Shown here in pieces: positions 6,430-59,577 of a DNA stretch of 64,000 bases (the first letter of the stretch is position 1; every line of letters begins with the position of its first letter). Made by a program: the position numbers and the translations under genes. Under the pieces are notes generated by a model, which did no database searches, was not told the origin of the DNA, and saw only the letters and a program-made list of their open reading frames with translations. This stretch comes from Mustelus asterias (Eukaryota): NCBI RefSeq assembly GCF_964213995.1, contig NC_135819.1:45942001-46006000 (forward strand). Direction: 5' to 3'.

Positions 6430-7091
6430 TGGCTTTTGCTACCAAATAAACCTGTTGGACTTTAACCTGGTGTTGTTAAACTTCTTACTGTGTTTGCCTT
6501 CTTTCACAGTATCCTATGTAGGACCTTGTCAAAGGCTTTGCTGAAATCCATAGAAACTACATCAACTGCACTACCCTCATCGACACATCCAATCACCTCC
6601 TCGAAAAATTCAATCAAATTTGTTAGGCATGATCTCCCTCTGACAAAGCCATGCTGACTACCCCAGATCAAACCTTGCCTTTCTAAATGGAGATTAATTC
6701 TCTCCTTCACAATTTTTTCCAATAGTTTCCCTACCACCGATGTGAGATTCACTGGTCTGCAATTCCCTGGTTTATCTTTACCAGCCTTCGTGAAAAGTGG
6801 AACCACATTAACTGTCCTCCAATCCTCTGGCATCTCCCCTGTGGTCAGATAGGAATTAAAAATTTGGGTCAGAGCCCCTACAATCTCCTCCCTTGCCTCG
6901 CACAACAGCCTGGGAAAGAACTCATCCGGACCTGGAGATTTGTCCACTTTTAAGCCCACCACGATCTCCAATACCTCCTCACTCCCTATGTCAAACTGTT
7001 CAGTAATCTCCCTCCCTCCCCGAATTCTGTACCAACATCTTCCTTCTTCCGAGTAAAGACAGATGTGAAGTAATCGTTTAACATCCTGAAG

Positions 7092-7410
7092 TAGCACTGC
7101 TGCCTCACAGCGCCAGGGACCCGGGTTCAATTCCGGCCTCGGGTCACCGTCTGTGCGGAGTCTGCACGTTCTCCCCGTGTCTGTGTGGGTTTCCTCCGGG
7201 TGCTCGTTTCCTCCCAGAGTCCAAAGCTGTGCGGGTTAAATTGATTGGCCATGCTAAATTGCCCCTTAGTGTCAGGGGATTAGCAGGATAAATACATGGG
7301 GTTAAGGGGATATGGCCTGGGTGGGATTGTGGTTGGTGCAGACTCAATGGGCCGAATAGTCTCCTTCTGCACTGTAGGGATTCTATGATCTATGATTCTA
7401 TTTCTATGAC
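7092..7410 (+). mobile_element. HE1-type V-SINE inserted in CR1
   Basis: B box ggttcaattcc, V-core and (attctatg)n tail. CR1 sequence resumes after 7410. Confidence 0.88.
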
Positions 7411-9171: not shown

Positions 9172-9507
9172 TCATAGAATCCCTACAGTGCAGTAGGAGG
9201 CCATTCAGCCCATTGAGTCTGCAACAACTCTCCAACAGAGCATCTTACCCAAGCCCTATCCCTGTAACCCCACATATTTACCCCACTAATGCCTCCTAAT
9301 CTACACATCTTGGGACACTAAGTGGTAACTTAGCATGGCCAATCCACCTAACCTCTCCATCTTTGTATTGTGGGAGGAAACCGGTGCACCGGGATACAGG
9401 GAAAAGGTGCAAACTCCACACAGACAGTGACCCAAGCCGGGAATCGAACCCGGGGGTCCCTAGAGCTGTAAGGCAGCACTGCAAACCACTGCGCCACCGT
9501 GCCACCC
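9172..9507 (-). mobile_element. HE1-type V-SINE
   Basis: Reverse tRNA head, core and atcatagaatcc tail. Confidence 0.88.
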
Positions 9508-9544
9508 GCACAAAGCAGGGTGGCAGGGTCTTGGGCATAGAAAG

Positions 9545-42345: not shown

Positions 42346-43677
42346 CATTCCTGAAGAACTAAATCCTATGAGGGACTGCATTGTTTTTTTTAAGATTGTC
42401 CCCAGCAATGGGGACCAGGCATGATGACCTCTCCAATGGAAATTGAGGCCATTGAGGACCCACACCGTGGACCCCCCCGTCGACATTATACAGGAGATAG
42501 AAGATGAACTAAACATATCTGTAAAAAATATACACTCAGTAACGTGTTACACATTTTAAATATCCATCACACAAAAACAAGGCCCTCCAGGGCCAATCAA
42601 AATTTGAATAATTCACTCCGAGTCATTGGCGTTCCTCTTATCACTCCAGCCCACCTGCCCTGCCATTACAACACAATAAACCCCAATCCATTGTGAATAA
42701 TACCAGTTATCATACAGCCATTTAACTGAATTGGCACATATATACATGTGAGCCCTCCAAGCATGGCCACCCACCATTTACAGATATCTCACAATCTATC
42801 AACGTCCAATGTATGCCACTGGAATTAATGCATGAGAGATACCTGAAGAGGTTGCTTCCCAAAGAGTATGGATAATTTGTTCGACACTGTAATACGCTCG
42901 AGGCTGTCACTATTTGGGCAGATGCTGGTTTCAACTTGCATGTAAGGAATCAATGCAATGATCAATTAGGTATCAATTCATGAAGCCTCATGCACTCAAT
43001 AACATTTGGTTAATTAGGTAAATAGCAAATCTTAAGAGTGGAGCCAGCACAGATTTTTATTCATCACAGTTCCTCGGTGCCCTGAAATTTGATGATCTGT
43101 GAAATACAACTGCAATTCATGATTCTTATTGAGCCAAATGTGAAGCTACAACTGCATTTTTAAAAGCTAAATGATTAAATTACTTCAACAGATATGACAA
43201 GCTTTCTGAAAGGTATTATTAAAGACAACTGTGAAATATGAGGAAATGTACAAACCTTTGAAGTACAATGGGAATAAATAACCTTAGCACCAGACTATTA
43301 TTTTTAAATGACTTTTGACAACGCATTGGGAGAAAATTTCATGTTCTGTGTAAGCCAAGCATGATTGTCAAAACGAATTCCCCCAGAAGTAACAGCAACA
43401 AGATGTTAGGGGAATCATCATTTCTCATTTCTACTTTACATTGTTTCCTGAGAAGGAACTCTTCAAATGCAGACAATAAAAATATAACAAAACATACTCC
43501 AACTTATAAATCAAAGAAAAGGTTTAATAAAGAAACTTCATTACTCCAAACTTGGAGCCTCGCCCTGGGCCACACCGAGCTTCCCATAATTCCCAACAGA
43601 TTCTTATTTATAGTGAGTCAGCTGACCATCACATCATTCTGTAATTGGTTCCATGGTTTACTGGGTCAGTTGACTCT

Positions 43678-44019
43678 GTAAGAGTTTTAACAACACCAGG
43701 TTAAAGTCCAACAGGTTTATTTGGTAGCAAATGCCATTTGCTTTCGGAGCGCTGCTCCTTCGTCAGATGGAGGGGGTGTCTGCTCTCAAACAGAGCATAC
43801 AGAGACACAAAATCAAGTTACAGAATACTGATTAGAACGTTCTCTTCCTGTGAATTCTTGGAGAGCGCTTGCCCGAAGATGGAGGCTGGGTGCCCGTGAC
43901 CGCTGGAGTGTGCTCCGAAAGCTAATGGCATTTGCTACCAAATAAACCTGTTGGACTTTAACCTGGTGTTGTTAAAACTCTTACTGTGTTTACCCCAGTC
44001 CAACGCCGGCATCTCCACA
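43678..44019. mobile_element. Mosaic fold-back Penelope insertion in the TRIM 3' LTR
   Basis: TSD tcagttgactct at 43666-43677 and 44020-44031. The empty site is visible in the other LTR. Confidence 0.92.
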
Positions 44020-44138
44020 TCAGTTGACTCTTACAGCTTGTTACCATTGGTCACATTACATCCAATACAAAGTTGTCACCAGTTACATTCTAACAGATAC
44101 CCTTCATTTTAAATTATTTTGAAAAAGAGAATTAAGAT

Positions 44139-44156
44139 AACCATCCTCTGCTACCA
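44139..44156 (-). promoter_or_regulatory. Primer-binding site complementary to the initiator tRNA-Met 3' end
   Basis: Minus strand reads TGGTAGCAGAGGATGGTT, 1 nt after the LTR terminal CA. The plus strand aaccatcctctgctacca equals the vertebrate tRNAiMet 3' 18 nt including CCA. Confidence 0.92.
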
Positions 44157-44521
44157 ATGTTTCTTCAAAGGGAACTTTTCAAATGCTGACAATAAAAATA
44201 TAACAAAACCTACTCCAACTTATAAATCAAAGAAAGGGTTTAATAAAGAAACTTCATTACTCCAAACTTAGGGCCTCGCCCTGAACCACTCCAAGCTCTC
44301 CACAATTCCCAACAGGTCCTTATTTATAGTGAGTTAGCTGACCATCACATCATTCTGTAATTGGTCCCACGGTTTACTGGGTCAGCTGATTCTTACAGCT
44401 TGTTACCATTGGTCACAATACATCTAATACAAAGTTGTCACCAGTTACATTCTAACATACATAAGATGGTTCACAAGAAAGCAAAGACCATCACAGAGGA
44501 AACTGGCACCTTTGCTTATTA

Positions 44522-45410
44522 AGAGTTTTAACAACACCAGGTTAAATTCCAACAGGTTTATTTGGTAGCAAATGCCATTAGCTTTCGGAGCGCTGCTCCT
44601 TCGTCAGATGGAGTGGAAATCTGTTCTCAAACAGGGCACAGAGGCACAAAATCAAGTTACAGAATACTGATTAGAATGTGAATCTCCACAGCCAACCAGG
44701 TCTTAAAGATACAGACAATGTGAGTGGAGGGAGCATTAAGCACAGGTTATTGTCTCCAGACAGGACAGCCAGTGAGATTCTGCAAGTCCAGGAGGCAAGC
44801 TGTGGGGGTCACTGATAGTGTGACATAAACCCAACATCCCGGTTTAGGCCATCCTCATGTGTGCAGAACTTGGCTATCAGTTTCTGCTCAGCGACTCTGC
44901 GCTGTCGTGTGTCATGAAGGCCGCCTTGGAGAACGCTTACCCAAAGATCAGAGGTTGAATGCCCGTGACCGTTGAAGTGCTCCCCCACAGGAAGAGAACA
45001 GACTTGCCTGGTGATTGTCGAGCGGTGTTCATTCATCCGTTGTCGTAGCGTCTGCATGGTTTCCCCAACGTACCATGCCTCGGGACATCCTTTCCTGCAG
45101 CATATCAGGTAGACAACGTTGGCCGAGTTGCAAGAGTAGGTACCGTGTACCTGGTAGACGGTGTTCTCACATGAGATGATGGCATCCGTGTCGGTGATCC
45201 GGCACGTCTTGCAGAGGTTGCTGTGGCAGGGTTGTGTGGTGTCGTGGTCACTGTTCTCCTGAAGGCTGGGTAGTTTGCTGCGGACAATGGTCTGTTTGAG
45301 GTTGTGCAGTTGTTTGAAAGCAAGAAGTGAGGGTGTGGGGATGGCCTTGGCGAGATGTTCGTCTTCATCAATGACATGTTGAAGGCTCCAGAGGAGATGC
45401 CGTAGCTTCT
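44522..45410 (-). mobile_element. Penelope-like element, 5'-truncated (subfamily B), GIY-YIG region plus pLTR
   Basis: Homologous to about 5580-6490 (VVYLICC..WYVGET, RQRMNEHR, GLNRD). TSD cctttgcttatta at 44509-44521 and 45411-45423. Confidence 0.93.
44575..44611 (-). ncRNA. Minimal hammerhead ribozyme (Penelope pLTR, subfamily B)
   Basis: ccat-CTGACGA-aggagc agc gctcc-GAAA-g-CTA-atgg: intact core, stem I ccat/atgg. Confidence 0.82.
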
Positions 45411-45767
45411 CCTTTGCTTATTACCAGTACAAGATGGGCATTTATTAATGTCAGGGCATACTTCACTTTCATGTTGTTCACTTGCCATCCTCAGGCATGA
45501 AAATGCACGAAACAGATAACGTAGAACCTTTCAGCCCAAACTGTTCACACCAGCACTTACTCCCAACACAAATAAATACTCACCCTATCACAATATCCCC
45601 TTTGACCCCTTTTCTTTCATCCACCAATCCAATCTAATCTTGAACTTTAATAATGTCTGTCTCAAATACTAATCCTGTAAGTTAATTCCACAAATCTGAT
45701 TAAAGACACTCTTCTGCAATTTATTTTAGCTCCTTCTCGCACTCTTCCCTCCGCAATGGGAGAATTG

Positions 45768-56020: not shown

Positions 56021-56598
56021 AGAGATAAGGCGAGGTGCAGACTTCAAAGTGGAGTTAGAGGGCGAGGGCAATAATTGGGCCGGGCGTGCATGCAGAGTTC
56101 AACCTCCTATTTTAAAATCTTGATTTTTATATACTTCCATTAATAATTCTTGTGCCACATTAACCCATGCACGTTGCCCACATAAACTTGTCACATTGTA
56201 GTTACATCTTCAAGCCAGTAAAGACACGACAGCGCCAACACTGCTGGGAGTGTGGAATTACAGCAACATGCGCCCATAGAAGATCCAGGATCGCATCTGT
56301 GCTGAGAGAATCAGAATAGAAACTCTCTCCAAGTGTGACCAATGATGCTGCAATTGGCATCACAAATTTGCATTGCCAAAATACGTTACATGTGGACATT
56401 GGGATTTAGAACAAAAGAAAACGTGACGAAACAATGAAGTCAAGTGGCACAGACAGAAAATGCGTTTATTTGAAGTACACAAGTCACACTTTGATTACTC
56501 CTTGACTGCATATGGTATTCTTCTCCCAAACTAAAATTAGGTTTTAAAATGTTTTTTTTCTGAAAATCACTTGAGTATGGAAACATAGTGGTGATGTT

Positions 56599-57870
56599 GA
56601 CCTTGACCTTTGTCAAGGGCAGATCGTGCCTTACGAGCCTGGTGGAGTTCTTCGAAAATGTGACTAAACACATTGACGAAGGGAAGGCGGTAGATGTGGT
56701 TCATATGGATTTTAGCAAGGCGTTCGATAAGGTCCCCCATGCAAGGCTTCTAGAAAAAGTGAGAGGGCATGGGATCCAAGGGGCTGCTGCCCGGTGGATC
56801 CAGAACTGGCTTGCCCAAAGGAGGCAGAGAGTGTGTATAGATGGGTCTTTTTCTAAATGGAGGTCGGTCACCAGTGGTGTGCCCCAGGGATCTGTTCTGG
56901 GACCCTTGCTGTTTGTCATTTTCATAAATGACCTGGATGAGGAAGCGGAGGGATGGGTTGGTAAGTTTGCCGACGCCACGAAGGTTGGTGGGGTTGTGGA
57001 TAGTCTGGAGGGATGTCAGAAGTTACAGAGGGACATAGATAGGATGCAAGACTGGGTGGAGAAGTGGCAGATGGACTTCAACCCAGATAAATGCGTCGTG
57101 GTCCATTTTGGTAGGACAAATGGGATGAAGGAGTACAATATAAAGGGAAAGACTCTTAGTACGGTAGAAGATCAGAATGACCTTGGGGTCCGGGTCCATA
57201 GGACTCTGAAATCGGCCCCGCAGGTGGAGGAGGTGGTTAAGAAGGCATATGGTGTGCTGGCCTTTATCAATCGAGGGATTGAGTTTAGGAGTCCGGGGAT
57301 AATGATGCAGCTATATAAGACCCTCGTCAGACCCCACTTGGAGTACTGTGCTCAGTTCTGGTCGCCTCTCTATAGGAAGGATGTGGAAAAGATTGAAAGG
57401 GGTGCAGAGGAGATTTACAAGGATGTTGCCTGGATTGAGTGGTATGCCTTATGAGGATAGGCTGAGGGAGCTCGGTCTTTTCTCCTTGGAGAGACGAAGG
57501 ATGAGAGGAGACCTATTAGAGGTGTATAAGATGTTGAGAGGCATAGATCGGGTGGACTCTCAGAGGCTTTTTCCCAGGTTGGAAATGTCTGCTACGAGAG
57601 GACACAGGTTTAAGGTGCTGGGGGGTAGGTACAGGGGAGATGTTAGGGGTAAGTTTTTCACACAGAGGGTGGTGGGCGAGTGGAATCGGCTGCCGTCAGG
57701 GGTGGTGGAGGCGAACTCAATAGGGTCTTTCAAGAGACTCCTGGATGAGTACATGGAGCTTAATAGGATGGAGGGTTATAGGTAGGTCTAGAAGGTAGGG
57801 ATGTGTTCGGCACAACTTGTGGGCCGAAGGGCCTGTTTGTGCTGTAGTTTTTCTATGTTTCTATGTTTCT
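56599..57870 (+). mobile_element. Young CR1 LINE 3' 1.27 kb inserted in a SINE head
   Basis: ORFs 56588-57454 and 57348-57785 joined by one frameshift near 57400. Catalytic FADD reads FADA. (tttctatg)n tail. Candidate TSD atgtt at 56594-56598 and 57871-57875. Confidence 0.95.
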
Positions 57871-58487: not shown

Positions 58488-59571
58488 TAGAAACATAGAA
58501 ACAGAGAAAACTACAGCACAAAACAGGCCCTTCGGCACCACAAGTTGTGCCGAACATATCCCTATCTTTTCGGCCTATCTATAACCCTCCATCCTATTAA
58601 GTCCCATGTACTCATCCAGGAGTTTCTTAAAAGACCCTATTGAGTTCGCCTCCACCACCACTGACGGCAGTCGATTCCACTTGCCCACCACCCTCTGTGT
58701 GAAAAACTTCCCCCTAACATTTCCCCTGTACCTACCCCCCAGCACCTTAAACCTGTGTCCTCTCGTAACCCTGGGAAAAAGCCTCTGAGAGTCCACCCGA
58801 TCTATGCCTCTCAACATCTTATATACCTCTATTAGGTCTCCTCTCATCCTACGTCTCTCCAAGGAGAAAAGACCGAGCTTCCTCAGCCTATCCTCATAAG
58901 GCATGCCACTCAATCCAGGCAACATCCTTGTAAATCGCCTCTGCACCCTTTCAATCTTTTCCACATCCTTCCTGTAATGAGGCGACCAGAACTGAGCACA
59001 GTACTCCAAGTGGGGTCTGACGAGGGTCTTATATAGCTGCATCATTATCCCCGGACTCCTAAACTCAATCCCTCGATTGATAAAGGCCAGCACACCATAT
59101 GCCTTCTTAACCACCTCCTCCACCTGCGGGGCCGATTTTAGAGTCCTATGGACCCGGGCCCCAAGGTCATTCTGATCCTCCACAATACTAAGAGTCTTTC
59201 CCTTTATATTGTACTCCTTCATCCCATTCGACCTGCCAAAATGGACCATGCATTTATCTGGGTTGAAGTCCATCTGCCACTTCTCCGCCCAGTCTCGCAT
59301 CCTATCTATGTCCCTCTGTAACTTCTGACATCCCTCCAGACTATCCACAACCCCACCAACCTTCGTGTCATCGGCAAACTTACCAACCCATCCCTCCACT
59401 TCCTCATCCAGGTCATTGATGAAAATGACAAACAGCAAGGGTCCCAGAACAGATCCCTGGGGCACACCACTGGTGACCGACCTCCATTTAGAAAAAGACC
59501 CATCTATACACACTCTCTGCCTCCTTTGGGCAAGCCAGTTCTGGATCCACCCGGGCAGCAGCCCCTTGGAT
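58488..59571 (-). mobile_element. Young CR1 LINE 3' 1.08 kb, inverted relative to 56599-57870
   Basis: ORF 58575-59513 (312 aa; GVPQGSVLGPLLF, FADDTK), nearly identical to the plus-strand copy. Confidence 0.95.
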
Positions 59572-59577
59572 GGCTAA

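Follow-up and report, generated by a model that had tools for sequence, protein, structure and literature searches.

TRIMs are described, in the parts of two papers available (PMC6934838, PMC10886601), as elements of less than 1 kb in which two direct terminal repeats enclose a non-coding interior running from a PBS to a PPT, bounded by a target duplication, with many solo or end LTRs and with copies hit by later insertions. For vertebrates, the excerpted text of Kojima 2024 (PMC10886601) gives TRIMs from coelacanth, sterlet, paddlefish, zebrafish and other Ostariophysi, some of them in thousands of copies. The vertebrate Helenus TRIMs, which include LTR1_LCh and LTR2_LCh of the coelacanth, families of sterlet and paddlefish and LTR-11_DR of the zebrafish, are short non-autonomous two-LTR elements of fish genomes whose LTR includes a tRNA-derived Pol III promoter and which have 4-bp duplications, His, Leu or Lys primers and Gypsy partners (PMC10886601). 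A vertebrate TRIM as such is therefore not new, and the sequence-only reading of the present locus, which had TRIMs as best known in plants and some invertebrates and suggested a shark TRIM family of which no description was known, has to be corrected on this point. Outside animals, the same source describes interiors taken from Copia ends together with 5-bp duplications, as in the origin proposed below: in the fungal pair LTR-1_PTrit / Copia-9_PGr the TRIM interior consists of both ends of the Copia interior, and the plant SMARTs are comparable (PMC10886601). These belong to other kingdoms, however, and the fungal LTR contains a tRNA-like piece. The metazoan GalEa elements of the Copia group have a conserved iMet PBS, TGGTAGCAGAGC, directly after the LTR, and the LTRs of CoRex1/2 begin with TGTTA (PMC5445492, PMC3587641, as far as these were available). 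Neither a shark TRIM nor a Copia-dependent vertebrate TRIM appeared among the titles listed in the literature searched, which covers few subscription journals.

The locus described here lies in a stretch of 64,000 nucleotides, referred to as the window, and consists on the minus strand of an LTR-interior-LTR unit of 300 + 62 + 300 = 662 bp without its nested insert, with TG...CA ends. The 5' LTR (44158..44457, 300 bp, TGTTA...AACA) belongs to a high-copy LTR family in all five sequencing runs compared, and a motif scan located in it a TATA-like box (44321..44328, LTR position 130) and an ATTAAA hexamer resembling a poly(A) signal and followed by GT-rich sequence (44239..44244, LTR position 214), both of putative function. 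One nucleotide past the LTR is an 18-nt PBS (44139..44156) complementary to the 3' end of vertebrate tRNA-iMet, which agrees at 18/18 bases with the start of that stretch of a published iMet-CAT reverse primer which is complementary to the tRNA (PMC7744096, in the part available); it occurs once in the 64-kb window, with a chance expectation of 0.05 even when three mismatches are allowed. An AT-rich filler (44111..44138) leads to a weak polypurine tract (44100..44110, 10/11 purines) positioned 4 nt from the 3' LTR, so that the interior (44157-44096, 62 bp) is made up of 1 nt, the 18-nt PBS and 43 nt at 79% AT. The 3' LTR spans 654 bp (44095-43442), being 300 bp plus a 342-bp insert and one 12-bp duplicated copy: its first 76 bp, which include one copy of the duplication, are at 44020..44095 and its last 224 bp at 43442..43665. 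The 5-mer ATGTA (TACAT on the plus strand) abuts both outer ends, upstream at 44458..44462 and downstream at 43437..43441, and an identical 5/5 match has a chance probability of about 0.001 at fixed positions. Compared site by site, the two LTRs differ at 26/300 positions (21 transitions, 5 transversions, no gaps), corresponding to a K2P distance of 0.094.

This anatomy had been proposed from the letters alone (300-bp LTRs, 62-bp interior, 18-nt iMet PBS, target duplication and nested Penelope), and every coordinate was reproduced, as were the estimate of about 26 in 300 LTR differences without indels and the perfect 5-bp duplication TACAT directly outside both ends; the putative PPT, the weakest of these features, corresponds to a purine-rich tract that stops 4 nt short of the LTR. 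Most other contigs differ from the window copy at one of the 4 nt between tract and LTR, and because of this the PPT has likely decayed in the window copy, which is itself likely dead. The element contains no ORF of 150 aa or more among the ORFs of the window, no Copia protein remnant was found in the window (best tblastn E 0.5), and the window holds no further copies of the element, only the Penelope part having additional matches. Two solo LTRs that lie side by side by chance were considered and rejected, with PBS, tract and outer duplication all exactly placed.

Compared with TRIMs in general, the element shares the size, direct repeats, non-coding interior, target duplication, solo or end LTRs and later insertion given above, and its perfect 5-bp duplication is within the TRIM range of 4-6 bp; it differs in its very low copy number and in an LTR of 300 bp, longer than the 100-250 bp quoted for TRIMs (PMC6934838), while Helenus LTRs reach up to 323. 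It differs from Helenus in having no tRNA or 5S signal, a 5-bp duplication, an iMet primer and a TATA box. An Rfam scan down to E 5 gave a single sub-threshold intron match inside the Penelope insert and neither tRNA nor 5S in the LTR, ARAGORN called no tRNA in the element, and a motif scan found no A or B box in the LTR. Membership of TRIMp3 (Helenus / Ajax / Cassandra) was rejected on the lack of tRNA- or 5S-derived Pol III boxes in the LTR. With regard to GalEa, the window has TGGTAGCAGAG(C) directly after the 5' LTR, as in the published descriptions; 11/12 bases of the published motif are shared, the 12th following the vertebrate tRNA, and so are the TGTTA start and the TG...CA ends (PMC3587641, PMC5445492, in the parts available). 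Unlike GalEa elements it is without gag-pol, and its LTR has no detected match to the sole GalEa-like LTR compared (L001, below). The metazoan GalEa clade, for which Terrat 2008 is cited, is assignable from RT/RNase H only, and the window element has neither.

Words of the stretch were contained in 23 of 24 public runs (13 studies), each with at most 44% of them, and the 17 runs with the largest word shares include organisms coded A-G. Five of the 24 (X1, X2, X3, X6 and X13) were compared, all as contigs, the depth of which was not taken as copy number; six runs that may be RNA, with word shares of 0.05-0.14, were not among them. The region 44020-44381 was aligned by 4265 contigs in X1, 6269 in X2, 6405 in X3 and 3649 in X6, and 217, 314, 312 and 200 of these, respectively, part from it at the LTR start and continue in flanks unrelated to one another (agreement 0.31-0.33), a sign that the LTR family occupies hundreds of insertion sites. 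The largest identity class among the LTR contigs is 90-95%, and thus the family is about as old as the window copy. Loose ends recur inside the LTR at 44191, 44195 and 44265 in all four of these runs and suggest the existence of LTR subfamilies that differ in their 3' ends or by internal indels. Viral contigs gave no matches to the PBS junction and none to the LTR start.

The interior most often found with this LTR is not that of the window copy. In each run 8-14 contigs keep the first 13 bases of the PBS and then pass into a different sequence that they share with each other (13 in X1, 11 in X3 and 8 in X13, with agreement of 0.75-0.94), the depth on the primer side and on the tract side is 10 to more than 40 times that of the mid-filler in X1 and X3, and four of the listed pieces extend beyond the primer or tract side by 69-153 letters and meet no LTR, with no joint listed, so that the common interior must exceed about 90-180 nt. 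The longer interior is thus commoner than the 62-bp type. At the other end, the last 25-30 nt of the window interior are common to these more numerous copies, and the polypurine-tract end of the interior is shared by 16-32 contigs per run. Such a pattern would be expected of a short form in which the two ends of a longer interior are joined, as in the fungal pair above, and the position around 44126-44134, where shared cover falls (judged by depth and contig ends), is likely the join of primer side to purine-tract side. A single X13 contig contains at 44139 the full 18-nt primer site followed by 52 letters of a third, unrelated sequence, and may represent a further type of interior for this LTR.

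The short interior is nevertheless not confined to the window. Short LTR-interior-LTR contigs number about three each in X1 and X3 and at least one in X6 (0-4 per run), the two counts of three being summed depths at 44131 resolved into contigs by arithmetic. X13 has no cover at 44130-44134, which is not proof of absence, and X2 has some filler cover with no bridging piece among the 8 listed, the pieces inspected being the 8 listed per run of thousands aligned. An X1 contig covering 44033-44190 has LTR on both sides, 21 substitutions and 8 gap letters relative to the window and an implied interior of about 54 nt, while contigs of X3 and X6 over 44044-44235, also with LTR on both sides, imply interiors of about 58 and 51 nt. 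Two further X3 contigs extend from the head of the LTR across the filler to the PBS, with gaps that differ between the two. Another X1 contig shows no difference from the window over the interior; possibly it is the source of the window itself, and it therefore does not count as independent. Several contigs thus share the short interior in X1, X3 and X6, as is characteristic of TRIMs, and none do in X13. The sequence-only reading had allowed that, were this the only copy with the short interior, it would be a one-off deletion, and with other short junctions in three runs this is not what was found. Its suggestion of a TRIM family holds as to a complete TRIM-like unit with several short copies, but not as to a sizeable family, each run having some 0-4 contigs of the short form beside hundreds of LTR junctions and a longer interior that is commoner.

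Later duplicates or orthologues would be expected to be no more diverged from the window copy than its own two LTRs are from each other, at 8.7% without gaps (in the LTR parts covered by the X1 contig 44033-44190 they differ at 8/96 sites). The other short copies are 11-15% diverged from the window copy and carry gaps in addition. The LTR-pair value was exceeded in all five pieces, with one-sided Fisher p values of 0.025-0.34 (one of five below 0.05) and in a comparison that includes AT-rich filler, which is gap-prone and may evolve faster. Because of this excess and these gaps, the comparison leans towards the other short copies being separate insertions from already diverged parents, rather than the products of later duplication. 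Neither flank nor target duplication was seen for any of them, the contigs breaking inside the LTR.

Identification of the parent relies on shared signals. A metagenome scan matched two loci, one of which (L002) was dropped as it looks like a chance match inside a bacterial coding sequence. The other, L001, has an LTR unrelated to that of the window, ending in ACA and followed by T, the same 18-nt PBS and then gag, and matches the window over this 23-nt junction only. Of 387 candidates, 43 are relatives of this gag, and those with names come from teleosts; all 15 relatives longer than 1300 aa have integrase and RVT_2 domains with KARLVA and a [ST]RPD motif, and in 14 of the 15 the integrase-type motif precedes the RT motif. 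A Pfam search assigned the L001 gag piece to no family. As a separate observation, the gag start codon of L001 (L001:695-1054, ATG at 707) lies inside the 18-nt iMet primer site, and 16/43 relatives begin with MVS, the residues opened by this PBS/gag overlap; the same ATG in the window opens an 11-codon frame only. No gag-pol linked to the window LTR was found in the contigs compared. With regard to target sites, 5-bp duplications go with Copia-type partners and 4-bp duplications with the animal Gypsy-dependent Helenus in the available text of PMC10886601. Because of the iMet PBS junction, the TGTTA start, the L001 junction and the 5-bp duplication, a GalEa-like Ty1/Copia element is the likeliest parent. 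Primer sites for iMet are also known outside GalEa.

On balance we think it probable, albeit well short of certain, that the locus is a gene-less two-LTR element with a few diverged short relatives, likely a deletion derivative of an abundant GalEa-like Copia family whose proteins are likely to have copied it a few times; a low-copy TRIM is the best reading of it. The short copies might instead never have moved as short RNAs, having arisen by recurrent loss of the interior in place or from one deletion spread by segmental duplication, which we regard as rather unlikely. Deletion in place would account for the rarity of the short form, with mid-filler depth at 0-10% of that on the primer or tract side, for implied interiors that differ (about 51, 54, 58 and 62 nt), and for a target duplication that is seen for no other copy, the contigs ending within the LTRs. 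However, the other copies can be aligned collinearly over the filler at 80% or more and carry the longer PBS match and not the common 13-base type, which argues that they share one join, and independent losses would rarely all have their ends immediately behind the PBS and in front of the PPT. Segmental duplication in turn fits poorly with a divergence from the window copy that is above that of its LTR pair in every piece, the statistics of which are weak.

A different way of reading the same contigs is that a short or slightly longer non-coding form is in fact the main two-LTR type, present in tens to hundreds of copies and hidden by fragmentation and the 80% cut-off. The similar size of the primer-side and tract-side depths, the several contigs that end at 44120-44125 or 44132 with just 13-22 loose letters, the tendency of contigs to drop and split repeats, and the lack of coding sequence seen adjoining the window LTR family would all agree with this; the four listed pieces that run on without LTR or joint speak for an interior larger than it predicts, and we judge it improbable. 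We give still less weight to a TRIM with a Gypsy-type or endogenous-retrovirus helper in place of Copia, which appears very improbable. It would be in keeping with the view that all animal Helenus TRIMs are Gypsy-dependent (PMC10886601, in part available) and with the scarcity of Copia in many chondrichthyans (found in few species, though one catshark has 719 copies; PMC11889832, in the part available), and no helper of any kind was seen directly. Against it, the 5-bp duplication, the iMet PBS 1 nt past the LTR, the TGTTA start and the weak PPT all fit the available GalEa descriptions and the L001 junction.

For the preferred low-copy TRIM, an internal deletion of a longer GalEa-like Ty1/Copia LTR element would have produced the short form, which Pol II would transcribe into an RNA of about 0.4-0.5 kb, with the TATA box in the 5' LTR as promoter and the poly(A) signal in the 3' LTR marking the end. 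A Copia helper would package this RNA, tRNA-iMet would prime minus-strand DNA and the purine tract the plus strand, and integration would generate the 5-bp duplication, with the Penelope fragment presumably inserted into the 3' LTR of the window copy at a later time. Between whale and zebra shark, separated by about 50 My, dS is 0.061-0.111 (PMC13100897, in the part available), and if shark rates apply, the K of 0.094 would place insertion of the window copy roughly 40-75 My ago. Dating by a pedigree rate of 7e-10 per generation (PMC10587355) gave 6.7e7 generations, which is implausibly old in years, and this rate was not used.

If the copies are separate insertions, TRIMs would extend to the cartilaginous fishes, a Copia-dependent type would join the Gypsy-dependent TRIMs of bony fishes and coelacanth, and the 62-bp interior would bound the cis signals that a GalEa-like Copia element needs in order to be packaged and primed. 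Insertions that are old and rare and have clean target duplications can also serve as phylogenetic markers among the slowly evolving sharks. The understanding of retrotransposition itself is unchanged by the window element. A more far-reaching proposal, which we put forward tentatively and as possible rather than probable, is that with this element a vertebrate TRIM family which depends on Copia (GalEa) and is driven by Pol II is described for the first time, as is a cartilaginous-fish TRIM, that it moved in trans tens of My ago and is common to several shark lineages, and that the hundreds of LTR copies may for the most part derive from non-coding forms and not from an autonomous element.

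Finally, the insert in the 3' LTR is a fold-back Penelope-like fragment of 342 bp (43678..44019) with 78-bp inverted arms that are 96% complementary and perfect copies of a 12-bp target duplication at 44020-44031 and 43666-43677, and because of these arms and this duplication the fragment is younger than the LTR pair. It resembles other elements of the window, the ORFs of which are weak GIY-YIG matches below the Pfam cut-off. About 60 bp upstream of the element (44520-45417, minus strand) is another Penelope-like copy, longer than the nested one and containing a 202-aa frame of GIY-YIG type; a 13-bp target duplication appears to flank it near 44509-44521 and 45411-45423. Elsewhere in the window, ARAGORN made a tRNA-Cys-like call at 9429-9511 (minus strand), which Rfam did not report at gathering score and which is likely a SINE head. 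Long frames at 6504-7235, 56564-57454 and 58575-59573 resemble, from their translations, fragments of CR1-type LINE reverse transcriptase, the latter two being close together on opposite strands.
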